64,000 nt of DNA from Hypomesus transpacificus (taxonomy: Eukaryota). This document shows positions 1 to 51,790 of this stretch, one piece after another (within the stretch, counting starts at the first letter, position 1; the number at the start of each line of letters is the position of its first letter). The DNA is taken from positions 13,032,768 to 13,096,767 of the forward strand of contig NC_061076.1 of assembly GCF_021917145.1 (NCBI RefSeq). Reading direction: 5' to 3'. A program made the position numbers and the translations under genes. Below the pieces are notes generated by a model. The model made no database searches, had not been told where the DNA came from, and saw only the letters and a list, made by a program, of their open reading frames with translations.

Positions 1-174
1 GTGGAGCACCCTCTGAGTGAGTGCCAGTGGTTCCACGGTACACTGTCTCGCCTCAAGGCAGCGCAGCTGGTGCTGGCAGGGGGCACGGCTAGCCACGGTG
101 TGTTCCTGGTGCGACAGAGCGAGACACGGCGCGGTGAATACGTGCTCACCTTCAACTTCCAGGGCAAAGCCAAG
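1..174 (+). CDS. sh2b1: SH2B adaptor protein, SH2-domain exon (5' part; exon begins upstream of window)
   Basis: The frame is open from nt 1 and translates to ...[49 protein letters not shown]. This is a near-identical match to the SH2 domain of SH2B1 and, less closely, of APS and LNK. A GTGAGT donor follows directly at 175. Confidence 0.88.
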
Positions 175-2649: not shown

Positions 2650-3700
2650 GTGGGGGGGGGCAGGTTAAACTGGATTTTGAACATTAAACAGCAGTTCTTA
2701 AATGTGATCAGGTTGTCCCAACTTAAAAGTCACAAACAAAAAAGTAACAAAAAATTAAGGGTGATCATCTTACTGTGAAGAGATTTGTGGTTGATTCAGA
2801 GGACAGACAGGTATGTGCAGATAAAGGCATAAAGAGGAATGTTTCTGCTAGACAAATTCATCGGATTAAGAGAGCAGCGGCTAAAATGCCATAACAAAGC
2901 AGCAAACAGGTATTTGAAGTCCCGCGAACTTCAAGGTGTAGGATTCTACAGAGGCTTGCAGTTGTGCATAAACCTACTATTCGGCCACCGCTAACCAATG
3001 TTCACAAGCAGAAACGGTTGCAGTGGGCCCAGAAATACATGAAGACTAACAGTCTTGTTTACTGATGAGTGCCTTGCAACCCTGGATGGTCCAGATGGAT
3101 GGAGTAGTGGATGGTTCATGGATGGCCACCATGTCCCATAAGGCTGCAACGTCAGCAAGGAGGTGGTGGAGTTATGTTTTGGGCCAGAATCATGGGGAGA
3201 GAGCTGATAGGCCCCTTTAGGGTCCCTTAAGGTGTGAAAATGACCTTGGCAAAGTATACATAGTTTCTGACTGACCACTTTCTTCCATGGTACAAAAGGA
3301 AGAACTGTGCCTCTTCATGCATGACAATGCACCATGTCATGCTGCAAAGAATACCTCTGTGTCATTGGCTGCTATGGGCATGAAAGAAGAGAAGGAGAAG
3401 GTGTGGCCACCATCCTCCCCTGACATCAACCCTATTGAGAACCTCAACTGACCTCAACCCTATTGAGAACCTCAACTGACCTCAACCCTATTGAGAACCT
3501 TTGGAGCATCCTCAAGCAAAAGATCTATGAGGGTGGGAGGCAGTTCGCATCAAAACAGGAGCTCTGGGAGGCTATTCTGACATCCCGCAAAGAAATTCAA
3601 CAGAAACTCTCCAAAAACTCACAAGTTCAATGGATGCGTTCAATGGGTCCTATGTTAACGTGTAACTTGCCCTATTAAGATGTTTTTTGATTGAAATAGC
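2650..3700 (+). pseudogene. Tc1/mariner (Tc1-like) transposase remnant
   Basis: The + strand translates in pieces to ...KRLQWAQKYMKTNSLV..., ...HDNAPCHAAKNTSVSLAAMGMK..., and DLNPIENLWSILKQKIYEGGRQFASKQELWEAILTSRKEIQ. These are typical Tc1 transposase C-terminal regions. Frameshifts, stops and a tripled 28-bp segment at 3425-3490 show it is decayed. Confidence 0.8.
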
Positions 3701-4321: not shown

Positions 4322-4496
4322 CACCTGCGACTGTCCCTGAATGAGGACGGCCAGTGTCGTGTGCAGCACCTGTGGTTCCAGTCCATTTTTGACATGCTGG
4401 AGCACTTCCGCGTACACCCCATCCCCCTGGAGTCTGGGGGTGCCTCCGACGTCACACTCATCAGCTTTGTGGGTGCCACCGCTGTCAGGCAACCAG
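4322..4496 (+). CDS. sh2b1: SH2B adaptor protein, second SH2-domain exon
   Basis: An acceptor (ttctttacag) sits at 4320-4321. The exon translates to [58 protein letters not shown], continuing the SH2 domain in phase from exon 1. A GTAC donor sits at 4497, and the exon ends in phase 1. Confidence 0.88.
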
Positions 4497-5089
4497 GTAC
4501 CCCCCCCCGCACTAGATTCCATATTCTTCATATTGTTTTATGAAGACAGGATGAAAGCGGAGTCACACGATCGCATGCCTGTATCACCCCCCCCTCCCCA
4601 ACCCCATGAAGAAAATCACATTTAGCCTTCTGTCCAACCCCTGACTGGCCTGTCCCTATACTGAGTCTTTAGTTTTGTCCCACAGACTGTATATATCAGT
4701 GGTGGCTGTTGACTTAAAAAAACTGACCCACTGCGTCATATTATTTTACAGTAGTTGGCTACTTATCTCTACTTTCTTATATTTAAGGCATGTTAAGGTA
4801 TTATGTTCAAATGTTGCACTAATCCAACTAGCAACCTAATGCAAATGTAATATACAACTCAGGTAAGGTAATGCACACAAATTTAATCCCCATCTTCTAT
4901 AAGGAAAAAACATATAATTAGGGCTGCAACACGCGATTATTTTGATAGTCGACTAATCTAACGTTTATTAGAACGATTAATCGAATAATCGTCGAGACAT
5001 TGTCATTCACCATTTAATTAATTGTATAAACAAGTAATTGACTGACTGATGTAGCATTCTGCCTAATATCTCCTTTTGTATGTAATGAA

Positions 5090-5610
5090 AATGGAACATT
5101 GATTCCCACACAGAAGAAGTGTAGTAGTAGCCTGGTCCTAACCAGACTCTCGTACATTGCATTTGTGCATTTGGATCGAGTCTGGGCTCGATCCATTGAC
5201 AAGCGTTAACTTCCTTGAAGGCGGGTACTCTGTTGACGTTTAAAACTATTGGATCTGCCCTGAGCCACTCTGGATCTGGCATTACCGATCGCTAGCGTTC
5301 GCCTTAGCCAACTCCTTCCCCACTAATGGAGCTAGCTGGAAAATCAAACAAACCCCGTGGGGATGAAAGATTGTTCTTGCTCCGGTTTTAACTTCTGGAC
5401 ATTCGGCAGCGTTGCCACATTGGACTGAAAGGGTTCGCTCACATCTTTCTCCGTCGCCATTATGTAACTACAACTCAAACTAGCGCACGACATCAACGTC
5501 GTTCTCAGCCACTCCCTCTGTTCACTGATTGGACAGGTAAAAAGTTTACCGGAGACATCTGACCAATATACCTCATGCCCAGACGCAGTACAGTAGCACA
5601 ATGAAAATTG
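5090..5610 (-). repeat. Interspersed repeat carrying a RecQ-like helicase motif-I fragment (copy A, minus orientation)
   Basis: The minus-strand ORFs read ...ATLPNVQKLKPEQEQSFIPTGF... and ...YKEVNACQWIEPRLDPNAQMQCTRVWLGPG. The same sequence occurs inverted at 60620-61060. Confidence 0.6.
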
Positions 5611-5689
5611 AGCGGAAGTACTTGCAGAACCAGGCTTGTGTAGTAGTTAGCTAGCCCTACGATTTACCGGGGCTAGGTCTGAATGTTGG

Positions 5690-5900
5690 GAAGAGGCCCC
5701 GGGGAAGACCCAGCACACGCTGGAGGGACTATGTCTCTTGGCTGGCCTGGGAACACCTCGGGGTCCCCCAGGAAGAACTGGTGGAAGTGGCCGGGGAGAG
5801 GTAAGTCTGAGCCTCCCTGCTTTGGTTGCTGCCCCTGCGACCCGACCCCCGGATAAGCGATAGATAACGACGAGGTCTGAATGTAGGAGTTAAACGGAAC
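5690..5900 (+). mobile_element. LINE 3'-end fragment (teleost L2/Rex-type C-terminal tail)
   Basis: The fragment translates to GRPRTRWRDYVSWLAWEHLGVPQEELVEVAGER, a characteristic C-terminal motif of teleost non-LTR retrotransposon ORF2. Confidence 0.6.
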
Positions 5901-7675
5901 ACAGCTGCCAGCTGTAGGTATATGCAGGTAGCAACGCTAGTGCTAAACAAGTATTTAGCTGGTCAGCTCGATGTTGCCGGGTGAGTAGGGCTTGTGAAAC
6001 TGCTCACCAAAAGAATGAATGGGAACCAAGTAGCCTCCACTTTCCCAGACTTTTAGTTACGGTACTAATGCTGAGGGCTAGCTGAAATCGCTGTCTTACT
6101 AGAACCCGTATCTATGCATCGTTGCTAACGTGTGATGACATTGTAACGTTAGCACTGAGTTCCCTTTGTGCACACAAGGCACTTTTTGCCAAACTTAATT
6201 CAAGCCTAAACCATCAAATGTAACGTTTGCGCGAATACAAGCAACTCAATCGGTACCACGTTTTTTTAGGGGTGGGAAAATAAATAATTATAATTATATA
6301 TGAGAGAGAACAATAGTTGTACTCACCTTATATGATGCATGTTAAGATAACCAAAAGTCCCGACTCCTATGATTTGTCCTAACTTTTCCCCCCTATACGG
6401 CGCCCCTGCACACAGTACTGTATAATCGCTGTCTTTGGACATATAGGCCTATGCAAGAGGAAAATACGAGAGGACACATACAACTAGCCCGTTTTTATCA
6501 ACTGGTGTCGCTAATGGCTATCCTGGCTAGTTGTATGTGTCCTCTTGTGTCGGGATGTTTCCGCTTTAAATGCTCCAACATGCATGTTGAACTCCCATGA
6601 AAGGCGAGTTCCGCCCTGCATGTAAACACACGACAGCATTTTTTTACATCAATTTTTTATTTATTTTATAAATCCCAAATGATCAAATATCATAGGCCTA
6701 TTACAAAGGATATAAATACGTAATATTTGTGGAGTTGGTCATCCAGTGTTGATCCTTTCCTTTGCTTCCTAATCTTAACTGTGGAATGGCTGTGTCAACA
6801 AGTGATTCCCTCCCACCCCATAGTCTCTTGCTGCTGAAATTGATTAAGCTTGATAAAACTATATTTCGGAGCAGGTTAATGTAATTAGACAGTCTACTGT
6901 CTAATAGCGAATGTAATATGCACATATTTTTGTCCTATTTCCCCTAAATAAGGTAAGCCTACTTTAAGACACCCCTTCCACTCATAAAGTATGTTCTAAA
7001 TGGCATAAATGCTGCACGTGTACACTGTCTGCTTAATTTGATGTTGACATATAGGCTAAGCATTCTGTAACAAATAATAACAATAAACCCACTATTAATT
7101 ACATGATCTTAATGCAGTGTAACTACTTGCATAATAATGCACCTAAAATACAAACGTGAGCAAGGGCGTTCAGTAATCGCTATCGAATCAACAGCCACGT
7201 GCAATTTAGCTAGCAGGTGAAGAATACAAACAACGAAAATCACCAGTTAACTTGTTATTAGTTATACGAATTCTCAAGGACGCACAGTGGCGCGCGTGCC
7301 TGCTCGCGGTGTGAACCACGTGTCCGTGCTATTCTCCATCATGCACTCTAACAATCACCGCTTTTCGGCCTTTTGTACAGCCATATTTCTGATACCGTGG
7401 CAGCAGAAATGTTCCCTCTGCAAAACAAAAAAAATCTACATTGAGGAAACACTGGACACTTACCCCTTAATGCTATGAAATGTTGGCTGCAATACACATT
7501 GAGAAAGTTGTGGTTGCTGTTTTGCTACCTTGCATAGAAGGTTTGCTGTAAGTGGCGCAAGACCGCATCTTCAAGTTCAAGTCTTTTATTTGTCAGGTAC
7601 ACAGAACAACACAAGGTTAGACTGGGCACAAAAATTATTAAGACAAGACAACGCAAGCACCTGGCATAACATAAC

Positions 7676-8440
7676 ATTAGTGCTGTCAGTTAAACGCTTA
7701 TTAACGGCGTTAACGCAAACCTAAATTAACGGCGTCAATTTTTTTATCGCGCGATTAACGCTCTTTTTGACCTAGCAAACTTTGTAGTTTTTTCACATTC
7801 TGTTGCAACAACCACTGACGTTAGAAAAACTACAATACCGCACTGGATCTAGCTAGACCGGAAACAAAACAACAGGCACGCCACACACACTTGTTTGGGC
7901 TTGCGAGCCGGCTAAAGAGTAGTAGCAAAGCCCATTTACGGATATTAGACATTCTCTGGTAGTAGGCTAACGTTACGTTTTGAGTTGATTGCCAGCACCA
8001 GACGCCGAAATGGCTGCCAATAAGATTCTGAATGGAAAGTTTACTTTTAAAAGGTTGCCAAATGGTTCCATTGACGAGACCAAAGTGATCAGTGTGTTCT
8101 GTCGTTGTGAACTGAGCTATTATCGCAGCACGTCGTGGAGTCTAAAATACCATTTTGATGGCCAAGCACACAGCTGATGCAAATTCTCCGCCCGCTTGTC
8201 AAAGCCAGGCGATTGCAATGTTGTTTTCAATTTAAAAAAAACATTTGCACGAAGCAATCCGAACTACTTTTCCATGTTGATAAGAGCATTAACATTTGAA
8301 AAAATAATGGATGAAAAATAAATCAAGGGACATTTAGAATAGATAAAAATGTGTGATTAATTGCGATTAATCGCAAGTTAACTATTACATTAATGCGATT
8401 AATCGCGATTAAATATTTTAATCGTTTGACAGCTCTACAT
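7676..8440 (+). mobile_element. hAT-family non-autonomous element with a BED zinc-finger remnant
   Basis: The termini are AGTGCTGTCAGTTAAACG... and ...CGTTTGACAGCTCT, hAT-like TIRs with ...GATTAATCGCGATTAA... sub-terminal motifs. An internal ORF at 7989-8177 reads NGKFTFKRLPNGSIDETKVISVFCRCELSYYRSTSWSLKYHFDGQAH, a C..C...H..H BED finger. A near-identical copy lies at 57300-58082. Confidence 0.75.
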
Positions 8441-9471
8441 AACATATAAGTACACGGAACATAATTTACATCTATGCTGAGCTTAAATAAGTGAAACTTC
8501 CTAAATATACAGATAGCAATAAATAATCGACTATACTAACCCTAATACTACAACTTCCTAAATTAGAGATAACAATAAATAGTACACTATACTAACCCTA
8601 AATGCACATAAAACCTGTTTCAACCCTATGTCTTCGGGGTGAATGAGCGTTCGTAACATCGGTACAGTTCTGACAACTCTTCGCGCTTAAAAGATATATT
8701 TTCTAACTACCTTACTGTCAGTAAAATCATATCAAAATTACATGTGTCATTTAACACTGGGCAACCATTACCCTGAGGGCATATGAATGTTGAAGGTATC
8801 TTCGCTGACAGTCTTTGCTGACTGTGGCTAGCTAGTTAAAACACACGCGTTGTTGCATTGTGTGACATCCTGACGCCCTGACGTTTCTGACTGTGGCTAG
8901 CTAGTTAGCTACCGTAAGCTTCATTTTTTGCCACAAAAACGTAAATTATGGCTAAACAGTAAGAACGGAACGATTGCGCAAATACAAGCAACGCAATTGT
9001 GACCAAGACTTACATTTTGGCACCGAAATGGAGCAAACATTTAGTGAAGAGTTAGGGTGGGAAAATAAATAATAAATACAAATATATATGACAGAGAATA
9101 TAGGTTAAGCCTTGCCAAAGACAAGCACACCCAATTAAACATAGCGTAACTATCACAACTTGGTTGACAGTCAAATCATCGTTTTACGTTTTTCAGGTGG
9201 TAGGCTACATCATATTCGACGTCGAACTATGAAAAATAAACCGTTATTGGCATAGTTTGCATTCAACGTTTTTCGAGTCACCCGGTACTATCTTTAGCTA
9301 GACTATGCTTTAGCTAGGTTAGCGCCACAGTCTATGGTTAGCACATGCATTCATTATGTTAGCAACTGGTAGCAATGTAACACACAGTCCGCAGACGCAG
9401 GTACCCCCGCGACTACTTCACTCAGAGCAGCTGTCAATCATGAAGTCTCACCCCCTTTTTATATCGTCAAA

Positions 9472-10445
9472 TTAGGGCTGTTCCCACTCAGTCGGCTAGT
9501 CGATTTTCTGGTCGATATGCTCTTGGTCAACTAAGATTTTTTAGTCGAGCTGCCATATGGCAGTGTGAGATCTGATTCCCGCTTGTGTCATCATTGCTGA
9601 ATTAACGAAATGTTCTACAGAAACTGTAGATTATATTATTTAAGACAAATAAAGCAACTGTAAAAATATGTATTTAAAAGAAAAGGTGTTACTGTTTTCC
9701 CTTTCGTTAATCTGCGCTTTGTTTTGGTTTGGTATTTTGCACACGGCACATTGGCTGCCGAACGACAAACTCTGCCATAGCCTACTTTGTCGGTGTTATT
9801 AGTCAAAATGGCAAAGAAATCTGTGGTATGGCAGCATTTCATTACATAAACATAGTACCGGGTGACTCGAAAAACATTAAATGCAAACTCTGCCAACAAC
9901 GGTTTATTTTTCATAGTTTGACGTCGAATATGATGTAGCCTACCACCTGAAAAACTTAAGTTGGCCTAGCCCTACTTTGCTCATGCTAACGCGCTGGGTT
10001 GAAAAATGAAAATGCCTATTTAAAGAATCACATCCAAATCGAATGACATTATCTTGTCCGGCCAAGACAACAAAATCTTTCTCTGTTGCACCGTTCCCCA
10101 CTCAGCTTCTACGTAAGTTTGCATGCTGCAAGTTTTCATCAGGCAGTGATAAGTCCACTCTGATGATTTGCATGTTAAACAAACAATATTTTTTATTTGT
10201 AGTACATTGTAAGAGATACTAAATACCATCGGCATTCAGTTACAACAGGACTGGTGATATGAGTCTTATTATTAGTAGGCTATTAGCGGCTGAATCTGCG
10301 ATGTCCAGCAGCCATTGAGTCAGATCGGGAAAATATTTGTACTTTTTGTAAAAAAATATAAAAATAAATTTGATTAGTCGAGTTTCAGACGTTTTAGTCG
10401 AGTCTTGGTCGAGCAAAGAAAATCTTAGTCGGGGACAGCCCTACA
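9472..10445 (+). mobile_element. Non-autonomous DNA transposon (TIR AGGGCTGTCCCCGACTAAG-type, hAT-like)
   Basis: The left end is AGGGCTGTTCCCACTCAGTCGGCTAG and the right end is CTTAGTCGGGGACAGCCCT. Related copies lie at 17670-18470 (inverted) and 38380-38890. The element is embedded between inverted arms at 9190-9290 and 9845-9950. Confidence 0.65.
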
Positions 10446-11517
10446 TCAAATAACTACCGTATTTTTCGGAAATAAAGCCGCGGCTTGTACCCTAATTTTA
10501 CTGTTTTCTAGCGGTTAAACGGCTTATATTTCGAAGTGGTTTATAGCCTGGCTTTAGAACAACAAAGTGGCTTTGTCCCATGATCTCTACAGACCGTGCA
10601 GCTAAGTTAATGCTCAACACTTGAACAGGGGTTTATTAACTGAAAGAGGAATTATTTCTACTGTGTCGTCTCAGTTACACTATCAGGGCTTGGAAATACA
10701 GTGACTTGCTAAAGTAGGCAAATGGCTAGTAGAACATAACATTTCATAATAATTTCAGTAAATCAAACAGCTGCAAGACCCAGTGAAATATTATGTACAG
10801 CTAGCAAACTAACGTCACATTCTTGTGGGGTGCGGCTTATAGAAAACGCGGCTTATTTTCAGAACAATACAGTAATTTAAAACAAAATTTGCAGAAACAT
10901 TTGCACTTGAACAGACATCAGCGTGATAAGAACAACCTAAAATGAAATCTGTGTAAAAACAATATTTTGACGTGCACTTTTGTTTGGTTCATGTCCCATC
11001 CAGTAACATGGAGGGGGCGGAACTTGTGGCCTATATTGTAGCCAGCCACCATAGGGTGATAGAGATGCTTTGGCTTCACTTTTGGGGAGCTGTCATGCCA
11101 TCCATCTATATATACAGTCTATGGTTTGTCATTAGAAATGCCAGACTGGCCAAATCTGATAAGGCTAAGTGAAATGGAATGTGAGCCAAGCTACCAATTC
11201 TTCCTCACCATCCTTCTAACATGTCCCCCTATTATATTTTCCTTCCTGTCATATATTAATATTCCTTCTTCGATTTCTGTATTCCTGCCACCAGTTCTCT
11301 ACATCATTATGTTCCCATCTCCCTCAATCCCTCCTTCCCTACACACCCTTCACCAATTTATCATAAAGGATATTTATTTTACAAACATCATGCAAACCTG
11401 CACCTGACCTCTCCTTTTGTTTGTTTGCATTGCCCCTCCCAGACCGTGCGCTGTCGAGAACTCTGACTAGCTGTTGTTGTTATTGTGTTGTTGTTTTCCT
11501 CGGGTCATTCTTTGCAG

Positions 11518-11608
11518 GCCGGGACAGGGCAGGCAGCCGGCCCACAGTCTGTGATGTCATCACCACGCGCCACCCTGACTCTCCATCAACCCCCATCTCT
11601 GACTGTGT
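11518..11608 (+). CDS. sh2b1: SH2B1 91-nt exon (frame-shifting, probably alternatively included)
   Basis: The exon has a strong acceptor (tcattctttgcag) and a GTAAGT donor. With incoming phase 1 it reads G RDRAGSRPTVCDVITTRHPDSPSTPISDCV. This pattern matches, as far as I recall it, the post-SH2 segment of mammalian SH2B1 (GREQAGSHAGVCEGDRCYPDASSTLLPFGASDCV). Its length of 91 nt changes the frame of the terminal exon. Confidence 0.7.
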
Positions 11609-12482
11609 GTAAGTGAGACCGGACATTGCGGTGACCAAAAGAGAAAGAGAGAGTGAGAGAGCAGGAGTATGTGTGAGAGATTTGATAGAAACAGGTTGTG
11701 AGATGTTGGCAAAAGGAAGAGGATGAAAAAGGACATGGGAGGGGGGGGGGGGGGGGGCTACAAATTTTGCAAAAGTGCGGAGCATGCTGTGTAGTTAGTC
11801 AAAAGGAAATGCATAGAGAATCCACTTCTGCCAGGTAGGACATAGTAAAGCATGAGAGGCTGGAGGCTGCTAGCTGCAGAGGGCATGTGAATCAGTGTAG
11901 AAAGAGGCAGTAGTAGGATCAGGCGTTAGAAAGCTTAGGAAGATGTCGACTATTCACTGTTGGCACTTCCACAAAAGGTTATACTCAGGACTGCTTATAC
12001 TGTACATCGTAATTTATGATCTGTATATGTATGTCTTTAACGATTAGTCAGAGAGCTATAGACTGAACATGTGGCGTTTTTAATTGATGTCACCCTCCAG
12101 TAAATGTACAACTGGCATGTTTTAATTAATTATTGAATAATTGAATTGTGAATTCATATTGAACAAGACATCCTGACTTCATTGGTCTGTCCTTGGTATT
12201 AAAGCCCAGGGGGTGTGTGTGTTTGAGGGAACAGTGTTTTGAGTTGTGTGTGTGAGTGAGCGTGCATGCTCTGACCGATTCCATGACTCACATGGACCTG
12301 TCACATTGGACGTTTCAGCCGAATGACAGCACTCACACTCCCTCTCTCCCTCTTCACCTCTAACTTATTGGCAACTCCTTCCATCCTTACCTCCTTCCCT
12401 CTTCCCCACCCTTTTATTCACATCTTCTTTTTTATCATTTTCCCTCTTTTCTTTCTCTCTTGCTGAACTCTACTCCCTGCAG

Positions 12483-12754
12483 ACTTGACCAGCAGACCCC
12501 GTAGCCCTCCTCAGCTTCCTCCTCCACCCCTGCCTCCCGGTCGGCCCCCACCCCCCACACCACCTCAGGAGCGAGGGAGTGACACAGAGCTAGGAGCTGG
12601 TGGAGCAGGTGTGACAACAACAGCAGTAGGAGGTGCAGGAGTAGAGGACTGGGAAGAGAGAGAGTCATCCCTCCGCCAACTGGAAGGTGTGGAGAGTGAA
12701 GAGAGGGAAGGTGGGAGGGCAAGAGCCATTGATAACCAGTACTCTTTCTTCTGA
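12483..12754 (+). CDS. sh2b1: SH2B1 terminal coding exon, with two alternative C-termini depending on inclusion of the 91-nt exon
   Basis: The acceptor is ctccctgcag, ending at 12482. If the 91-nt exon is skipped, the frame runs ...PPQLPPPPLPPGRPPPP...EEREGGRARAIDNQYSFF* with the stop at 12752-12754; this matches the SH2B1 and APS C-terminal RAI(N/E)NQYSF(V/Y) motif. If the 91-nt exon is included, the frame gives VLDQQTP* with the stop at 12502-12504. Confidence 0.78.
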
Positions 12755-15412
12755 AAAAGGAGAAAAGGAGAGAAAGCGATGGGGGTGAGATGTGATTTGC
12801 AAAAGGGAGGGTGAAGGAAATGGAGGTCATAGCCATTCATAGGCATAGATCATAGCCATTCATAACCAATATTTGTGTTTTGTTGAGAAGAGGGAAATGA
12901 GGTACTAATACTATTAAAGGCAGGTTAGGCAATGTTGTTGAGAAGCACTTTTTGTCATATTTGCTAAAATAAACTCATCAACTCAACATACCAATAGATC
13001 TAAAGGTTTGACAGTAAAATTAAATCAATCCGATATCTGTGGGCGTCGCAGGACTGTAATAAACATGACCAATCATTAAGGTCTGACCGGCACTAATTAT
13101 TGGACGGCATTGGTACATGTGTTTTGGAGAAGTGGCTTTGAAAGAAGGGATGGGACATTTTAGTTTGAATCCTTCCAAGCTCGAGCTAAAATGACTAGGT
13201 TCGCGAAACCTGCCTATCCTTTCTTTAAAACAAGCATTCTGGGAGATACAGAAAGCTGGAGAGCAGGCGTGAGAAAAAGAGAGGGAGAGCGGAGCGAGGG
13301 GGCACCTTAGAACACTAAAAAAGGTACACTAATCTTAAGCGAGAGACGCTTCTTGTCGGTACATTTCATGGTACGCTCTTTTGTAGACTTTTAAATACAT
13401 TTACGGATGATGGTAGACGGGGCTAGGCCTAAGCCAGCAGTGCATTACCTCATCTCAGTTGTGCAGAGACTGACAGTTTATTGGCCAAGAGCAGATTTCA
13501 AGTAGTGGCCAACCATATACTTTCAGAGTGGCAAAGACTAGACTAGAACAGGCAGGAAATATATACCTCAATCACACTTGTGTCAATCTTTTTCTGTCTC
13601 TTTCTCTCTCTCCACTTTCTGTTTTTCTTATATGGTTGAAAAAAGGTTGGATGGAGAGCCTATGTGTTTGAGAGAGAAAAATAGTTTATTACTGATGATG
13701 ATATTGTTATGAATAAGAATGATTATGGAAATAGTAATGGTGGTCAAAATAATAGTATTTTTTTTTTATATATATACTTTTTATTTTTATGTTTACTCCA
13801 TGTATGCCTAACACTTGATCCCCTCCCATCCATGTTATTCAGTTTAAATTTCTTTGTGCCTTTTTTATAAAGCTAAAGCCTCACTCTCAAATCTATCCTT
13901 GACCTCATGCTGTCTTTTTATCCTGGACATTTCATTTTAAAAGTGCAGAAAAAGAAGAAAAAATTATCTTAAACGTAAAAATACCCTTTTCTATTTGTGC
14001 CTTTCTGTGTCTGTCATTACCTCCTGTCAAATTCCTTCTACCTGTGCCTCGGTTTGTCGCCACAGTTGTCTTTTGTCATGTTTGCCATTCAGTCCAGTGC
14101 CTGTCCTTCTTCTGTGCATCCGCCCTTCTTAATGTCTCCCCACTCCTCCTTGCTCAGAGCCATGCATTTCACTTTTACGCACCTTTCCCTAGAAATACAT
14201 GTTGGTCCATTTCTTATTTTTGAACTATCTTTGTGTGCCTTTCTCTGTCTCTTTCTCTCGTTGCTGGGACCGTGTGTTCAGGGTGGGCAGTGTTGTCCAC
14301 CCTGTGTGGTTAGTTTCAGGTACTACATTGAATTTAATGATGATAATGATATAATATAATATACTGAAACACGTTGGACTCCTGTGCACTTTCTTTCATT
14401 GTGATACTGTTGAAATTGTTTCTGCATGCACCGGGGATGCAAAAAATTATGAAAATTATTAGTCAAAAACGAACATCATGATTAATGCATTTATGCACAT
14501 TTGATTTTGCGATTTGCCTTTTTCTTCAGGAGCTAACCGTTTTTTACACGTTGCCATAATCTTGCAAAGTAGCACATATAATATCATTTTGTATAGCCTA
14601 TCGATCATATTACAATACAAAGGATGAATATTCAAAATGGGCCAGATGAACGAGAGGGAAAGACGCATCTAATTGCTGTAGGCATGGGAATGATGTGAAC
14701 AACACCTCTGTCAAAAAAAAGTAAAAACAAGACACAGATAAGGACTCTTTATTAGGGGTGTAACAATAAATTGTGGTACGATACATTGCGGTGCAGAAAT
14801 GTAGCAATATGTTGTTCACGGATGTATATAGCAAGGGATAGGATGTAGCAATATGTTGTTGCACGGATCCACCTTACGATACAACGCAAGTATTCCTGCT
14901 GAAGACGTCTCCAAGAAGCACTGAACTAAAGAGGCTGCCATAACTAACAAGGGCCAAACCCACTAACACTACCACTCCAGCAATCCCTACTGCACTGAAC
15001 ACAGCTGTGTGCCCTCCACTCGCGGCCACAATCCCAACCTTGGAACACAGTTTCTGTTGTAACAGTGGTTTTGGAAATAGATCCTGGACGAGCCCCCATT
15101 TGTTACGAATCCCTGGAGGGCAGTAGCGGACTGGCCATCGGGAGCACCGGGAGAATTCCCGATGGGCCGGAGGGCCGCTTGCCTTATAATTTTTTTTACT
15201 ACTAATAAAAATTTCAGCAACACGGTTGGCCGGCCCCCCTTTTCCCCAGGACGGTTGGTCTAGACTATTCCAAATGAACGTCTATGCAGCCCTTAGTGCC
15301 GCTTATACAGCGACACTGACAGATCGAAAGCTAGCTAGTAGAGACAATATAAAGATGGAAAACCAGGCTAAGAAACCTAAACGTAATTACCTTATGCGAC
15401 AAACGCTTTAGT

Positions 15413-33629: not shown

Positions 33630-36200
33630 ATTTACATTCATTCATTTAGCAGACGCTTTTATCCAAAGCGACTTCCAAGAGAGAGCTTTACAAAGTGCAT
33701 AGGTCACTGATAATAACAACAAGATAGCCCCAAAGCATTGCAGGTAGCCAAAAACAAAAGTACACATTGTGAACAACCAAAAATAAGTGCTAAAGGGGAG
33801 AAACCATAAGAGCATGTAGTTAAGTAAATTACAATTACACGACATGAATCTCTAAGTGCAAGTGTACCTGTAGGAAAGCAATAAAAATAGGATTAAATAT
33901 AATACAACAGTTTAAATCAGCTACCACTAACCAACAAGAGCAACAGTCTAAGCAAGAGTCATTGTGATCCTTGAGGAAACTAGCGTTGGGTTCAACAAAC
34001 CATTCCTAAGTACCGTTGTACTCCCGGAACAAGTGCGTCTTGAGCCTTCTCTTGAAGGTGGAGAGACAGTCTGTGTCTCTGATGGAGGTGGGGAGGTGAT
34101 TCCACCACTGGGGGGCCAGGCAGGAGAAGAGCTTGTGTTGGGACCGGGCGGTCTTGAGCGGTGGGACCACCAGGCGGTTGTCTGAAGAAGACCGTAGGTG
34201 GCGGGTGGGGGTGTAAGGCTGCAGGAGAGACTTGATGTAGTCGGGTGCAGTCCCGTTCACTGCTCGGAAGGTCAGTACCAGGGTCTTGAATCTGATGCGG
34301 GCCGTTATGGGTAGCCAGTGGAGGGAGATGAGGAGCGGGGTAACGTGGGAGCGTCTGGGTAGATTGTAGACCAGGCGGGCCGCTGCGTTCTGAATCCTCC
34401 GAAGAGGGCGGGTTGCGCATGCTGGTAGACCGGCGAGCAGCGAGTTGCAGTAGTCCAACTTGGAGAGGACTATTGCTTGGACAAGCAGCTGGGTGGAGTG
34501 CTCAGACAGGTATCTCCTGATCTTCCCGATGTTGTAGAGGGTGAATCTACACGACCGGGAGACCGCAGCAATGTGGGCCGTGAGGGAGAGCTCGTCATCC
34601 ATGGTAACCCCAAGGTTCCTGGCAGAGGATAAGGGGGTCACCGTCGCAGATCCCAGGGTGATTGAGAGGTCGTGGGAGATGGAGGGTTTGGCCGGGATGA
34701 TGAGAAGTTCCGTTTTGGCAAGGTTCAGCTGGAGGTGGCGCTCGGTCATCCAGGCGGAGATGTCTGCGAGGCAGGCCTCAATCCTAGCTGAGATCCCCGG
34801 ATCGGTCGGGGGGAACGACAGGTACAGCTGCGTGTCATCAGCGTAGCAGTGGTAGGAGAAGCCATGGGAGGTGATGATTGGTCCAAGTGAGGTGGTGTAC
34901 AGAGAGAAGAGGAGGGGTCCAAGGACGGAGCCCTGTGGGACACCAGTGGAGAGCTGGCGAGGGTCTGACACTTTGCCTCCCCAGGAGACCTGGTATGATC
35001 TTCCCGACAGGTAGGATGAGATCCACTGGAGTGCAGTGCCAGTGATCCCCATCTCAGAAAGTCTGGAGAGCAGGATCTGGTGGTTAACCGTATCAAACGC
35101 CGCAGAAAGGTCCAGCAGAATGATGACGGATGACCTCGAAGCCGCTCTGGCAGACTGGAGGGCAGTGGTGACTGAAAGGAGGGCAGTCTCTGTGGAGTGT
35201 CCGGTCTTGAAGCCCGATTGGTTGGGGTCAAGCAGGTTGTTCTGAGAAAGAAAGTTAGACAGTTGGTTAGATACAGCACGTTCAATTGTTTTAGAGAAGA
35301 AGGGTAACAGTGATACCGGTCTGTAGTTCTGGAGGACGGCAGGGTTAAGGGAGGGTTTTTTGAGTAGAGGGGTAACTCTGGCCTGTTTGAAGGCAGAGGG
35401 GAAGGTGCCAGAGGTAAGAGAGGAGTTTAGAACATGGAGCAGAAAAGTTATGATCAAGGGGGAGATGGTTTGAAAGAGAGGGGAGGGGACAGGATCAAGG
35501 GGACAGGAGGTGGGGCGATGAGAGAGAATGAGGTCAGAGAGCTCTGCCTCGGACAGGGGAGAGAAAGAGTTTAGACATTTAGTTGGGTCAGTCATGGAGG
35601 GTGAGGGGGTAGGAAAGGTGGGTTTAGGGAACCGACTGCTAATGTCGGCGACTTTTTTCTCAAAGAAGGAGGAGAAGTCGTCTGCTGTCAGGATGGAGGG
35701 AGGGGGTGGGGGAGGTGGGTTAAGAAGGTTGGAGAAGGTAGAGAAAGGTTTGTGGGGGTTTGAAGCAGAGTTAATTATGTTAAGAAAGTAGAGGGTTTTA
35801 GCACCAGTTATGTGAGAAGAGAAGGATTTAAGGAGGGAGTGATACTTATCAAGGTCCAGATCGTCTTTGGACTTGCGCCATCTCTTCTCAGCTGCTCGAA
35901 GGGTGGACCGTTCTTCACGAATAACATCCGTAAGCCACGGGCAGGAGGGAAAAGATCGTGCAGGCTTTGTTGACAGGGGACAGAGAGAGTCAAGTGATGT
36001 AGTTAAAGTGGTTAACAAGGTGTCGGTGGCAGTGTTAGTGGGGTGGGACGAGAACTCGTCAATGGCCTCTTGTGGGCCCTCTGATGGCCAAAGGGGCCCT
36101 AAGCAGCCGCTTAGTTCGCTTATGTCTTGGACCAGCTCTGTCGGCCATACTGCAGTGTTTCCGCTATGTTGGCCCACCACGGCAACATTTCTGCAGTATC
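33630..36200 (-). mobile_element. L2-like non-LTR retrotransposon, 5'-truncated, with an intact 724-aa reverse-transcriptase ORF (34006-36180) and a SINE-like 3' UTR/tail
   Basis: The ORF contains the RT motifs ...LLDLSAAFDTVNHQILLSRL..., [16 protein letters not shown] and YADDTQLY. It ends with the C-terminal LHWLPI.ARIRFKTLVLTFRAVNGTAPDYIKSLL...RLKTHLF domain. No stop codon interrupts its 2.17 kb. Confidence 0.85.
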
Positions 36201-37424
36201 AGAAATAGGGCTGTACAAAATTTTAGGCCGTCTATCAGCAGTGATTGTTAGAAAGCATATCAGATGATAGCACGGACACGCGCTTCACAGCGCAGTTGAG
36301 ATTGCATGTGTGCATCCTTGAGAACTGTAGAACTAAGATGAGAACTAAGTCGTATAACTTATGTTGTCAGTTAATTTAAGCCTGTTTTCGTATTAGTCTA
36401 TAGTTCTTGCTAATTTAAATTAAGTTAACTGGTGATTTTCATTGTTTGTAGGCTATTCTTCCCCTGCTAGCGAAATTGCACATGTCGATTCAATAGTGAT
36501 TGCTGCCCTTGTTCACGTTTGTATTTTAGGTGCATTATTATGCTGAAGTAGTTTTAATTAATAAATAGTGGGTATATCGTTATTATTAGCTACTAGAATG
36601 CTTAGCCTATCAAGATCAAATGAAGCAGACAGTGTACAAGCTTCCGAGTGGCCCCTTAATTGATAGTCTAGGCTACTGACCATTTACAATAAGTTATTAA
36701 GTCAATTATTCATTGGCAGCATTTATGCCATTTAGAACATACTATATGACTGTAGGGTGTCATTAAGTTGCCTAACTTTATTTCTTTCGGGGAAATAAGA
36801 CAAAAATATGTGCAATTTTACATGAGCTATTAGACTGTTACATTAACCTGCTCCAAAATATAGGGTTAGGGTTCACACTTTGTTTCGGCCGGGGAGGGGG
36901 GGGGGGGGGGTCGGACAGACCTGCCCCCACTGCAAAAAAAAAAATCCTAGAGGAAACACTGTACTGTATGTATATGTATGTGCGAACTTGAACAATTATT
37001 TACGAGCACGGTGCGCGAGTGACGGGCTGTTATCAATACACAAAACAACATTGCGATGAAGTGAAGCACCATTGATTTCACATGGAAAGCAAGCGACGGA
37101 GTCGCGACTAACATCTCATAATGACGCGTGAGCGACGATTCGCTACCAATGGGCCAGAGCCACATAAAAAGAGAGTTATGACACTCTTGATCTCGCCAAC
37201 ACATGATCACTTGGTTTAAGTAGCTCGCAAAAAAAAACCCACTGCTGTCAACCTGTTTGGTTTTCAATAGAACAGACAGTAGCAGCATCTTCCAAATGAT
37301 GATGTGTCTTTGGGCAAGGCACTTCACCCTCCTTGCCTCGGGGGGAATGTCCCTGTACTTACTGTAAGTCGCTCTGGATAAGAGCGTCTGCTAAATGACT
37401 AAATGTAAATGTAAATGTAATGTA

Positions 37425-42639: not shown

Positions 42640-44402
42640 ATTTACATTTATTCATTTAGCAGAGGCTTTTTTTCCAAAGCGACTTCCAAGAGAGAGCTTT
42701 ACAAAGTGCATAGGTCACTGATAACAACAACAAGATAGCCCCAAAAACATTGCAGGTAGCCAAAACATGAAGCAAATATTGTGAACAACCAAAATAAGGG
42801 CAAATGGAAGAACCATAAGAGCACTCTGCAAGTGTACCTGTAGAAAAGCAAGCAACAGTAAAAATAAAAATAAAAATCACAGCAAGTACAACAATCAGTT
42901 ACCACTAACCAACAAGAGCAACACGTCTCTCAATAAGAGACATTGTGATCCTGGAGGAAACATCAGGTCCAGCCAATCATTCCTAAGTACCGTTGGACTC
43001 CCGGAACAAGTGTGTCTTGAGCCTTTTCTTGAAGGCGGGGAGACAGTCAGTGTCTCTGATGGAGGTGGGGAATTGATTCCACCGTTGGGGGGCCAGACAG
43101 GAGAAGAGCTTGTGTTGGGACCAGGCGGTCTTGAGCGGTGGGACCACTAGGTGGTTGTCTGAAGAAGACCGTACATTTACATTTAGTCATTTAGCAGACG
43201 CTCTTATCCAGAGCGACTTACAGTATGTACAGGGACATTCCCCCCGAGGCAAGGAGGGTGAAGTGCCTTGCCCAAGGACACAACGTCATTTGGCACGGTG
43301 GGAAATCGATCCGGCAACCTTCTGATTACTATCCCAACTCCCTCACCGCTCAGCCATCTGACTCCGATAGGTGTCGGTTGGTGGTGTAAGGCTGCAGGAG
43401 AGACTTGATGTAGTCGGGTGCAGTCCCATTCACTGCTCGGAAGGTCAGTACCAGGGTCTTGAATCTGATGCGAGCCCTGATGGGTAGCCAGTGGAGGGAG
43501 ATGGGTAGATTGTAGACCAGGCGGGCCGCTGCGTTCTGAATCCTCTGAAGAGGGCGGGTTGCGCATGCTGGGAGACCGGCAAGCAGCGAGTTGCAGTAAT
43601 CCAACTCGGAGAGGACGAGTGCTTGGACTAGCAGCTGGGTGGAATGCTCAGACAGGTATCTCCTGATCTTCCGGATGTTGTAGAGGGTGAATCTACACGA
43701 CCGGGAGACTGCAGCAATATGGGCAGTGAGGGATAGCTCGTCATCCATGGTAACCCCAAAGTTCCTGGCAGAGGATGAAAGGGTCACCGTCGCAGATCCC
43801 ATGGTGATTGAGAGATCGTGGGAGATGGAGGGTTTGGCCGGTATGATGAGAAGTTCTGTTTTGGCGAGGTTCAGCTGGAGGTGGTGCTTGGTCATCCAGG
43901 TGGAGATATCTGTGATGCAGGCCTCAATATTAGCTGAGATCCCCGGATCGGTCGGGGGGGAACGACAGGTACAGCTGCCTGTCATCAGCGTAGCAGTGGT
44001 AGGAGAAGCCATGGGAGGTAATGATTGGTCCAAGTGAGGTGGTGTACAGAGAGAAGAGGAGGGGTCCAAGGACGGAGCCCTGTGGGACACCAGTGGAGAG
44101 CTGGCGAGGGCCTGACACTTTGCCTCCCCAGAAGACCTGGTAGGATCTTCACGACAGGTAGGATGAGATCCACTGGAGTGCAGTGCCAGTGATTCCCATC
44201 TCAGAAAGTTTGGATAGCAGGATATGATGGATAACCGTATCAAACTCTGCAGAAAGGTCCAGCAGAATGATGACGGATGACCTTGAAGCCGCTCTGGCAG
44301 ACTGGAAGGCAGTGGTGACTGACAGGAGGGCAGTCTCTGTGAAGTGGCCAGTCTTGAAGCCCGATTGGTTGGGGTCAAGCAGGTTGTTCTGAGAGAGAAC
44401 AA
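42640..44402 (-). mobile_element. L2-like LINE copy (same family as 33630-36200), 5'-truncated, carrying a SINE insertion
   Basis: The minus-strand ORF at 43350-44402 reads ...[13 protein letters not shown]...LHWLPIRARIRFKTLVLTFRAVNGTAPDYIKSLL. The element is interrupted at 43176-43375 by a tRNA-derived SINE. Confidence 0.8.
43176..43375 (-). mobile_element. tRNA-derived SINE (full length), inserted into the LINE
   Basis: Its reverse complement reads GGAGTCAGATGGCTGAGCGGTGAGGGAGTTGGGATAGTAATCAGAAGGTTGCCGGATCGATTTCCCACCG...TTGGGCAAGGCACTTCACCC...GTCGCTCTGGATAAGAGCGTCTGCTAAATGACTAAATGTAAATG. A 5'-truncated copy lies at 37300-37420 (+). Confidence 0.8.
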
Positions 44403-48899: not shown

Positions 48900-51790
48900 A
48901 CTTTTCTTTCTTCTGAAGTTGTTTTTGTTTCGTTTGTTGTTGTTTTCTTTTATATTTTGTTAAGAGATGGCCAAGCAATGGACCGTTACCTTTTGTTTTT
49001 TTTTTTGGTGTCTTTTCTGTTGTCTTTTCTGTTACTTTTTTCCCCTTCTTGTAACGGAGAGCAAAGCACAGTGGATTGGTGCCTTTGTTATTTGCACGAT
49101 CAGCTGATTGCGCTGAGTAAACCTTTACTACTGCCCGGAGCAAAGCCTAAAATCCCCAAAGAACTTCAGAGAAGGTGTTGGGGTTGCAGAACTGGAGCTA
49201 AGCTGAAGGCGAAGAGGAGGAAACACAAGCCATCGGTACCGGCGATTTTAATGGGGAATGTGAGGTCTTTGGTTCGGTCGGACAGGGACGTCATACAGAG
49301 CGGTAAGAAGGAAGGTGGAGGGATTGCTGTCTATGTGAACGAGAGGTGGTGCAATTCCGACCATGTGTGTGTGAAGGAATGTTTCTGTTGCTCGGACTAC
49401 ATATTTTAGCTAATATAACTTATAATATAGAAGTTCAATACTTCTAGCCGTGGGGATGCATCCGTATTACTTGCCAAGGGAATTCTCATCCGCCATTGTC
49501 ATCGCTGTGTACGTTCCTCCATCAGCTGACGCTGAGGCAGCAGTGGACATCATCCACTCCACTGTGTCCAAACCGCAGACTCAGTATCCCGATGCATTTT
49601 TGGCAGTTACTGGAGACCTTAACCACACCACTCTGGATAAAGTACTGCCAACTCTACACCAGTATGTGAACTGCCCCACATGGAACAATAAAACCCTGGA
49701 TCTCCTGTATGCTAATGTCACAGATGCATACAGTGCTACTGCCTTTCCCCCCCTTGGTAGGTCGAATCACAACCTGGTCCTGCTGACTCCCAAGTATGTT
49801 CCTCTGGTGCAGAGGCAGCCTGTGACCACCAGGACGGTGAGGAGGTGGACACAGGAGGCTAATGATGCACTGCAGGACTGCTTTGAGTCCACAGTATGGT
49901 ATGCGCTGTGTGGACCACATGGGGAGGACAACAACAGCATGACGGACTGTATCACAGAATATATACGAAATTCTGTAAACACCACTGTACCATCCCGGAC
50001 TGTTCACTACTTCCCCAATAACAAGCCCCAGTAACAATCACCAGTGACCTGAAAGTGCTTCTTAATAAGACGAAAGCAGCTTTCAGGTCTAGGGACAGGG
50101 AGGAGCTAAGGAGAGTTCAGCGCAACCTGAAGGTGAAGCTCAGGGAGTGTAAAGACTCCTATAGGAGGAAGCTGGAGGCAAAACTCCAGAAGAACAATTT
50201 GAGGGAGGTGTGGGCCGGCATGAAGGAGATCACAGGCTTCAAGGGGAGAGCGAGACAACCAGGTGGCTCCCTGGATAGGGCCAATGAGCTGAACTGTTTC
50301 TCCAACAGGTTTAGCTCACAGCCCTCATCTGTTTCCTCCACACACCACACCTCCCAAACACCTCCGCTGCCTTCCCCCCTGGTGAGCTGCATGGACAGAG
50401 AGCCCTCTACATCAAAGGGCTCTTCCACCACTGACGCCATGACCCCCCTCCCCCCCACTCTGTGACGACTGGCCAGGTTCGGAGACAGCTGGAGAGACTC
50501 CACCAGCGCAAGGCTGCAGGATCTGACGGCACCAGCCCCAGGGTACTGAAGACCTGCGCCGCCCAGCTGGCTGAGGTCCTGCAACACCTCTTTAACCTGA
50601 CCCTGAAGCAGGAGGAGGTCCCAGTGCTGTGGAAGACGTTGTGCCTGGTACCAGTTCCTCCATCTGGCCTCAAGGACTACCGACTGGTTGCCCTTACGTC
50701 GCATGTGATGAAGGTGCTGGAGAGGCTGGTCTTGGCCCACCTCAGGCCGCTGGTGAGATCTTCCCTGGACCCGCTGCAATTTGTATACCAGCCTCATGTG
50801 GGAGTGGACAATGCCCTCATCTACCTGCTGCAACTAGCTCAGTTGCACCTTGATGGAACCAGTGGCTCTGTGAGAATCACTTTCTTTGATTTTTCGAGTC
50901 CATTTAATACCATCCAACAACTGCTGCTGAGTGAGAAGCTGCGGGTGGAGGGGGTGGATACGTCCACTCTCTCCTGGATCACTGACTACCTCACAGGCAG
51001 ACCACAGTTTGTCCGACTAGGCAGTGTGCTGTCTGATACGGTGGTCAGTGGTACTGGAGCTCCACAGGGAACTGTTCTGTCTCTCTTTCTGTTCACCTTA
51101 TACACCACTGACTTCCAGTATAACTCAAGAGTCCTGCCATCTGCAGAAGTTTTCGTATGACTGTGCAGTGGTTGGGTGTTTAAGGGATTGACGGGAGGAG
51201 GAGTACAGGAAAGTAGTGGAGGACCTTGTGGAGTGGGCGGGTAGAAACCACCTGCTCCTGAACGTGGTCAAGACCAGAGAGATGGTGGTTGACTTCAGGA
51301 GGAAGACGACGGCTCCACAACCATTGAGAGTTCTGGGAGAGGATGTGGAGTTGGTTAAGGAGTACAAGTACCTGGGTGTGTCCATCGACAACAGACTGAA
51401 CTGGAAAACCAACATCAATGCTGTCTACAAGAAGGGGATGAGTCGACTCTTTTTCTTGAGGAAACTTCGATCATTTAACGTGTGCAGCAAGATGTTGGAG
51501 ATGTTCTACCAGGCTGTTGTGGCCAGTGCACTGTACATCGCTGTGGTCTGCTGGGGGAGCAGTATTGGAGCTGGAGACACCAGCCGACTTAACAAACTTA
51601 TTAGGAAGGCTGGCTCCATCATTGGCTGCAAACTGGACAGTCTGGAAAAGGTGGTGGAGAGAAGGACACTGAAGAAACTATTATCCATTTTGGATAATCC
51701 AGACCACCCTCTCCACCACCTACTGCAGGGACAGCGGAGCACGTTCTCCAATAGACTCCTTCAGCTACGCTGTAGGCGTTACAACTAACC
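48900..51790 (+). mobile_element. Near-full-length teleost non-LTR retrotransposon (endonuclease plus RT), with a frameshifted ORF2, inside mvp intron 4
   Basis: Successive + ORFs read ...KHKPSVPAILMGNVRSLVRSDRDVIQSGKKEGGGIAVYVNERWC (endonuclease N-terminus), MGMHPYYLPREFSSAIVIAVYVPPSADAEAAV...AVTGDLNHTTL...GRSNHNLVLL (endonuclease), ...QRKAAGSDGTSPRVLKTCAAQLAEVLQHLFNLTL...DYRLVALTS...FFDFSSPFNTI...GAPQGTVLSLFLFTLYTTD (RT), and ...LLNVVKTREMVVDFRRK...RLFFLRKLRSFNV... (C-terminus). Confidence 0.88.

Follow-up and report, generated by a model that had tools for sequence, protein, structure and literature searches.

A cassette exon of a ray-finned-fish SH2B1 gene and its two predicted C-terminal tails

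Can one small exon give a fish SH2B1 gene two different C-terminal tails? SH2B1 is an adaptor in JAK2, insulin, leptin and neurotrophin receptor signalling, and the question is raised by 64,000 nucleotides (nt) of Hypomesus transpacificus DNA (NC_061076.1, assembly GCF_021917145.1, positions 13,032,768-13,096,767 of the forward strand; hereafter the window), which open with the 3' part of such a gene. Here we analyse a 91-nt exon, its flanking introns and a last exon that can be read in two frames. The evidence makes it highly probable that this cassette exon switches the frame of the last exon of fish SH2B1 and thereby gives the protein either an alpha-type or a beta-type tail.

The cassette exon and the two reading frames

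The gene at the start of the window was assigned to ray-finned-fish SH2B1 because SH2B1 structures ranked above those of APS/SH2B2 and SH2B3 in a PDB sequence search with its SH2 domain. The top matches were 8atk (1.4e-26), 5w3r and 2hdv, followed by APS/SH2B2 (1rpy, 1e-21) and then by SH2B3 (1e-13). The last four exons of the gene lie inside the window and the rest of it, including any exons for the N-terminal Phe-zipper dimerisation domain and the PH domain expected of an SH2B1 orthologue, is upstream, with the window edge cutting into the first SH2 exon, whose donor (AAG/GTGAGT) is found at position 175. In the joined exons, the Pfam SH2 domain was complete in both predicted isoforms (1.8e-15, all 77 model positions).

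The exon encoding the C-terminal half of the SH2 domain (coordinates in Table 1) ends in a G, which is the first base of a split codon, and the cassette exon contributes its peptide plus two bases of a Val codon. The last exon begins behind a long pyrimidine tract and the acceptor CCCTGCAG. With the cassette exon included, the protein would end in SDCVLDQQTP (reading ...RQPGRDRAGSRPTVCDVITTRHPDSPSTPISDCVLDQQTP and then stop), giving a tail of 37 residues, 30 from the cassette exon followed by (V)LDQQTP; HPDSPSTPISDCVLDQQTP is an example of a peptide specific to this beta-type tail. With the exon skipped, the same last exon yields a 90-residue tail, DLTSRPRSPPQLPPPP...RAIDNQYSFF (reading ...RQPDLTSRPRSPPQLPPPP...GGRARAIDNQYSFF and then stop), which is proline-rich, then acidic, and closes with RAIDNQYSFF. 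An earlier inspection of the letters without database searches (the sequence-only reading) had described an exon of 91 nt with consensus splice sites and a length that is not a multiple of three, an inclusion product ending in VLDQQTP and a skip frame of 90 codons ending in RAIDNQYSFF. The exon was re-derived to the base and both ends with their stop codons were recovered from the sequence, the longer one fitting the tyrosine motif of the SH2B family.

In the proposed switch, skipping would join the constitutive SH2 exon directly to position 12483, and the last exon would be read for 90 codons into an alpha-type tail with a C-terminal tyrosine motif. Since 91 nt is 1 mod 3, inclusion would bring a frame shift along with 30 more residues, and the protein would terminate after (V)LDQQTP in a short beta-type tail lacking this motif. 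Both proteins would be identical through the SH2 domain, and both mRNAs would yield protein. Nonsense-mediated decay is not expected for a stop codon downstream of the last exon junction, and the inclusion mRNA should escape it because its stop lies in the terminal exon.

Conservation across vertebrates and alternative readings

The exon was compared with genomic DNA from Xenoophorus captivus (a goodeid fish), sturgeon, pigeon and bat, and with a spliced mammalian transcript contig (L003), which maps onto the bat genomic contig as an upstream exon (e1), a 100-nt exon and a last exon (e3) separated by introns of about 460 and 178 nt. A cassette exon was located at the equivalent gene position in all four of these other vertebrates. 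It measures 91 nt in the window, in Xenoophorus and in sturgeon, 46 nt in pigeon (L004, 3153-3198) and 100 nt in bat; every one of these lengths is 1 mod 3, and each exon lies between an AG and a GTAAGT donor (GTGAGT in pigeon). In the DNA alignment, the exon end ...GACTGTGT/GTAAGTG is common to fish and bat. A search of a large protein collection recovered the corresponding tails in an annotated sturgeon 'SH2B adapter protein 1 isoform X2' (...GRDRSGSRSAVCDVITLRHPESPSTPISDCVLDQPMS, ending in SDCVLDQPMS), in the annotated SH2B1 of Xenoophorus captivus (...GRDRAGSRPAVCDAITTRHPDSPSTPISDCV), in a pigeon protein (GRDRSGSRSATDPDDLAEQLP) and in mammalian proteins (GREQAGSHAGVCEGDRCYPDASSTLMP[SF]GASDCVTEHLP).

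The substitutions in the exon follow the predicted frame. The window and Xenoophorus differ at 11 sites, nine of which are third codon positions, corresponding to eight synonymous and two non-synonymous codon changes. Identity among the three fish is 84-91% within the exon, compared with a background of about 60% in the introns 20-120 nt away. Since position, splice sites and frame class are conserved in four vertebrates and the substitutions show a coding-exon pattern, the 91-nt segment is a conserved coding exon rather than a chance open reading frame (ORF), and the pattern shows purifying selection on the beta-frame peptide. This peptide is 46% identical to its mammalian counterpart, with the common blocks GR, AGS, VC, PD, ST and SDCV arranged as GR..AGS..VC...PD..ST...SDCV...P, and the fish exon is the orthologue of the mammalian 100-nt SH2B1-beta cassette exon. 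The 46-nt pigeon exon does not contain the VC...SDCV part of the peptide; its frame is still shifted by 1 and ends in ...AEQLP, six codons into the last exon. The possibility that a second frame of the cassette exon is also coding in fish, as in mammalian gamma, was rejected: although this frame has no stop, the differences between the window and Xenoophorus hit its second codon positions and would cause about nine amino-acid changes compared with two in the beta frame, so it is not under selection.

Both readings of the last exon are retained as well. In all six sequences the inclusion frame meets a stop 6-12 codons into this exon, the ends being VLDQQTP, VLEQQTP, VLDQPMS, VAEQLP, VTEHLP and VTEHLPRLTPAP, and in all three fish TAG is kept at the same seventh codon. 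The skip frame is open to ...RAIDNQYSFF in the window and in Xenoophorus and to ...RAVRNQYSFV in the mammal; over the 90 codons of the alpha frame, the window and Xenoophorus are 65% identical, with the RAIDNQYSFF end identical. In this analysis the mammalian skip tail has 125 residues and the inclusion tail about 40. Published mammalian SH2B1 has four isoforms that have residues 1-631 in common and carry tails of 40 (beta) to 125 (alpha) residues (PMC4138566), and because these lengths match, the two mammalian tails were identified as alpha and beta. The sequence-only reading had called for an alignment of both predicted fish tails with the C-termini of the SH2B1 isoforms; in this alignment the inclusion tail pairs with beta, and the skip tail is of the alpha type. 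In the sturgeon contig (L001, 11268-11560, Acipenser oxyrinchus), the skip frame entered from the conserved acceptor stops after 57 codons; the ...RAVDNQYSFF end is in a different frame, which splicing to an AG 10 nt deeper in the exon would open. An indel in the low-complexity, proline-rich stretch, whether real or introduced during assembly, would account for this, and so would a different alpha acceptor. For the pigeon alpha frame, no NQYSF end was found within 600 nt of the very GC-rich, repetitive contig.

The RAIDNQYS segment of the alpha-type tail fits the RA(V/I)xNQY(S/T) motif of the SH2B family. In the protein collection, many members of the family from invertebrates and vertebrates end in GRAVENPYSFV, GRAIENQYSFV or RTRAVENQYSFY, the ...GRA[VI]EN[QP]YSFV end following directly after the SH2 domain. 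Because so many members end in this way, the alpha-type end is probably the older one and the cassette exon would be an addition within vertebrates. In APS/SH2B2, the motif RA(V/I)xNQpY(S/T) around Tyr618 reportedly binds the TKB domain of c-Cbl, as Hu and Hubbard are said to have found in 2005. Cbl binding has been shown for APS; the fish tail matches the motif in sequence and may be a candidate for such binding.

The conservation of both alternatives leads us to infer that both junction sets are used in H. transpacificus. Several points weigh against a simple switch of this kind. A search of the protein collection for spliced fish transcripts found none: the fish proteins recovered are annotations of genomes or, for all close hits, prokaryote-style ORFs called on genomic contigs that run on into the intron. 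The simple skip frame of the sturgeon contig is broken, so the arrangement either is not perfectly uniform across fish or is disturbed there by an assembly indel. In addition, the last exon has AG dinucleotides 10, 13 and 22 nt from its start, and splicing an included cassette exon to any of them would bring back the alpha frame. With the first base of the last exon at 12493, 12496 or 12505, the cassette exon would become an in-frame insertion into an alpha-type protein, since all three offsets are 1 mod 3 and leave 83-87 codons open to IDNQYSFF. The AG at 12481-12482, however, is the first one after a pyrimidine-rich stretch that is free of AG for at least 60 nt, which makes it the normal choice, and the homologous first AG is used by the mammalian transcript L003 and in the annotation of sturgeon isoform X2. 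Based on the AG-free tract, the site used in L003 and the TAG kept in three fish, the first AG was taken as the acceptor in use; regular use of a downstream acceptor is very unlikely, and the three internal AGs are better viewed as potential minor acceptors.

A single form in this species, with the exon constitutive and the alpha frame a relic, or with the exon never used, is somewhat less implausible, but we still regard it as unlikely. Each alternative is intact and conserved, with an alpha frame open over its whole length and a cassette exon that has perfect splice sites and coding-type substitutions, and it is difficult to see why both would have been kept since teleosts, sturgeons and mammals diverged if only one were in use. 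Inclusion also brings an early stop and the loss of the C-terminal tyrosine motif, as would be expected of a 'poison' exon whose only role is to truncate or down-regulate SH2B1 through a tail without a function of its own. This explanation has hardly any credibility left, because the message is expected to escape decay, its stop being in the terminal exon, and because the peptide shows purifying selection (the eight synonymous and two non-synonymous codons given above); moreover, the peptide aligns with the tail of the functional and widely studied mammalian beta isoform. A switch between alpha- and beta-type tails is thus the reading retained here.

The invariant block, the upstream intron and other features of the window

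The last 29 nt of the cassette exon together with the donor GTAAGTG form a 36-nt block that is invariant in the three fish, including all synonymous sites, and all of the 8-15 pairwise differences in the exon fall within its first 62 nt. The block is possibly a splicing-regulatory element, a candidate enhancer or silencer. That it is an ancient element setting a tissue-specific alpha/beta switch in fish is a speculative extension, which we consider doubtful. A hairpin at the exon end that hides the donor was rejected: the fold is weaker than that of shuffled sequences (z = +1.68), 196 of 200 of which are at least as stable.

Table 1. Features of the SH2B1 locus in the window (positions counted from the first base of the window).
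Feature	Position	Strand	Remarks
Partial SH2 exon, N-terminal half of SH2 domain (...NFQGKAK)	1..174	+	tblastn (P0001/P0016), sequence read, Pfam SH2 on joined exons
Constitutive exon, 175 nt, C-terminal half of SH2 domain	4322..4496	+	acceptor TTTACAG/, donor CAG/GTACCC
Intron upstream of the cassette exon, 7,021 nt	4497..11517	+	
Cassette exon, 91 nt (1 mod 3), encodes GRDRAGSRPTVCDVITTRHPDSPSTPISDC(V)	11518..11608	+	acceptor CTTTGCAG/, donor /GTAAGT
Block of 36 nt across the cassette-exon end (29 nt) and the donor GTAAGTG	11580..11615	+	identical in window, Xenoophorus and sturgeon
Intron from cassette exon to last exon, 874 nt	11609..12482	+	
Start of last exon, predicted dual frame	12483..12504	+	with cassette (V)LDQQTP + TAG (12502-12504); without cassette (D)LTSRPRS
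Coding part of last exon, skip (alpha-type) frame, ends RAIDNQYSFF	12483..12754	+	TGA 12752-12754
Probable start of 3' untranslated region	12755..13063	+	pattern only; first poly(A)-signal-like hexamers at 12913, 12968, 13019 and 13058

At 7,021 nt, the intron preceding the cassette exon in the window exceeds its counterparts in the other species, which measure about 330 nt (Xenoophorus), 440 nt (sturgeon) and 460 nt (bat), by a factor of about 15-20. It contains inverted repeats resembling a miniature inverted-repeat transposable element (113 nt each, 94% complementary, at 9184-9296 and 9847-9959) and, at 8495-8601, a tandem repeat of 56 nt. An ORF search for a coding gene inside this 7-kb intron yielded nothing but short ORFs, none with an obvious identity. 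In the intron that separates the two SH2 exons, positions 3420-3500 hold a 28-nt tandem repeat of 2.9 copies (98% identical, CTGACCTCAACCCTATTGAGAACCTCAA), which reads as a PDLNPIEN motif that we take to be typical of Tc1-like transposases; the repeat is probably a transposon remnant.

Further downstream, the window carries remnants of long interspersed nuclear elements (LINEs) at 34006-36180 (-) and 50462-51160 (+), with ORFs of 724 and 232 residues containing reverse-transcriptase domains. Two further remnants, both full-length UnaL2 LINE 3' elements that pass the Rfam gathering score, lie at 37351-37404 (+) and 43181-43234 (-). An ORF at 51216-51788 (+) matches Pfam ALKBH8_N (1e-09) and adjoins the reverse-transcriptase ORFs. 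The ORF segment 54722-55285 (+) contains repeat domains of the Major Vault Protein, MVP (Pfam Vault, 2.2e-14, and Vault_2), and probably marks an MVP gene that follows SH2B1 in the same orientation at a distance of about 40 kb. In human, SH2B1 and MVP both lie in 16p11.2, and for this reason a conserved linkage of the two genes is suggested.

Comparison with mammalian SH2B1 and other known systems

The interpretation offered here is already known in its essentials: the alpha/beta mechanism is textbook knowledge for SH2B1, its conservation in jawed vertebrates has been reported, and no new principle is involved. Mildly new, at a descriptive level, are the 1 mod 3 class kept across three exon sizes (91, 46 and 100 nt), the 36-nt block invariant in teleosts and sturgeon, the T-rich acceptor tract and the expansion of the upstream intron to 7 kb. 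The locus shows an alpha/beta switch that is built alike in a ray-finned fish, with a frame class that survives the change of exon size, and is a clear example of an old splice event that switches frame and is under selection. Its practical value lies in the correct annotation of both isoforms in this genome.

In fish as in mammals, the cassette exon stands directly after the second SH2 exon, has a length of 1 mod 3, ends in the same sequence before the GTAAGTG donor and encodes a homologous peptide followed by an early stop in the last exon, and skipping leaves a long tail ending in NQYSF[FV]. The two systems differ in the length of the exon (91 nt in fish, 100 nt in mammals) and of the alpha tail (90 and 125 residues), and the fish and mammalian alpha tails are poorly alignable except for the last ten or so residues. 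The upstream intron spans 7 kb in the fish window compared with about 0.46 kb in bat. In mammals alpha is enriched in brain and beta is ubiquitous. The mammalian isoforms also differ in behaviour, the alpha tail blocking nuclear entry and neurite outgrowth induced by nerve growth factor (PMC4138566). Human SH2B1 exon 9 is a cassette exon validated by reverse transcription PCR; because its acceptor tract is C-rich, its inclusion depends on alphaCP1/2 (PMC4797308). The acceptor tract is C-rich in bat as well (CCCCTCCCCTCCCCAG), whereas that of the fish is T-rich, and for this reason the fish regulators may differ from the human C-rich-tract/alphaCP mechanism.

The mammalian gamma and delta isoforms are further products of this locus, made by reading the common last exon in different frames (bioRxiv 10.64898/2026.05.28.727796). 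They involve a 53-nt extension (2 mod 3) of the upstream exon and a third frame of the last exon. In bat, the 53-nt read-through of the upstream exon is GEQSRSAGEEVPVHPRSE. Our reconstruction, which combines the L003 transcript, bat genomic DNA and a frame comparison with the same preprint (bioRxiv 10.64898/2026.05.28.727796), predicts that the extension alone would cause the last exon to be read in its third frame, which is basic (delta), and that the extension together with the 100-nt exon would create a T/AA stop spanning the junction (gamma). A search of the window for an extension of this type found no good donor in the 15 codons that can be read past the donor at 4497 before a TGA, and the third frame of the window's last exon closes after one codon (ACT TGA). 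The preprint describes two of the three frames of SH2B1 as conserved among jawed vertebrates and confines the third to euarchontoglires (bioRxiv 10.64898/2026.05.28.727796), in agreement with a fish gene that has no open third frame. The sequence-only reading had equated the fish event with the mechanism that produces the mammalian SH2B1 isoforms; this stands for alpha and beta, for which the exon is orthologous and the tails correspond, and fails for gamma and delta, the extension being absent and the third frame closed.

Comparable arrangements are the dual- and triple-coding 3' exons of, for example, CCSER2 and ATP2B1, which are likewise ancient and arise through frame-shifting alternative splicing. 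Unlike in those genes, the stretch of fish SH2B1 overlapped by both frames covers only seven codons, leaving almost no true dual-coding constraint; as in those genes, the splice choice made upstream sets the frame in which a common terminal exon is read.

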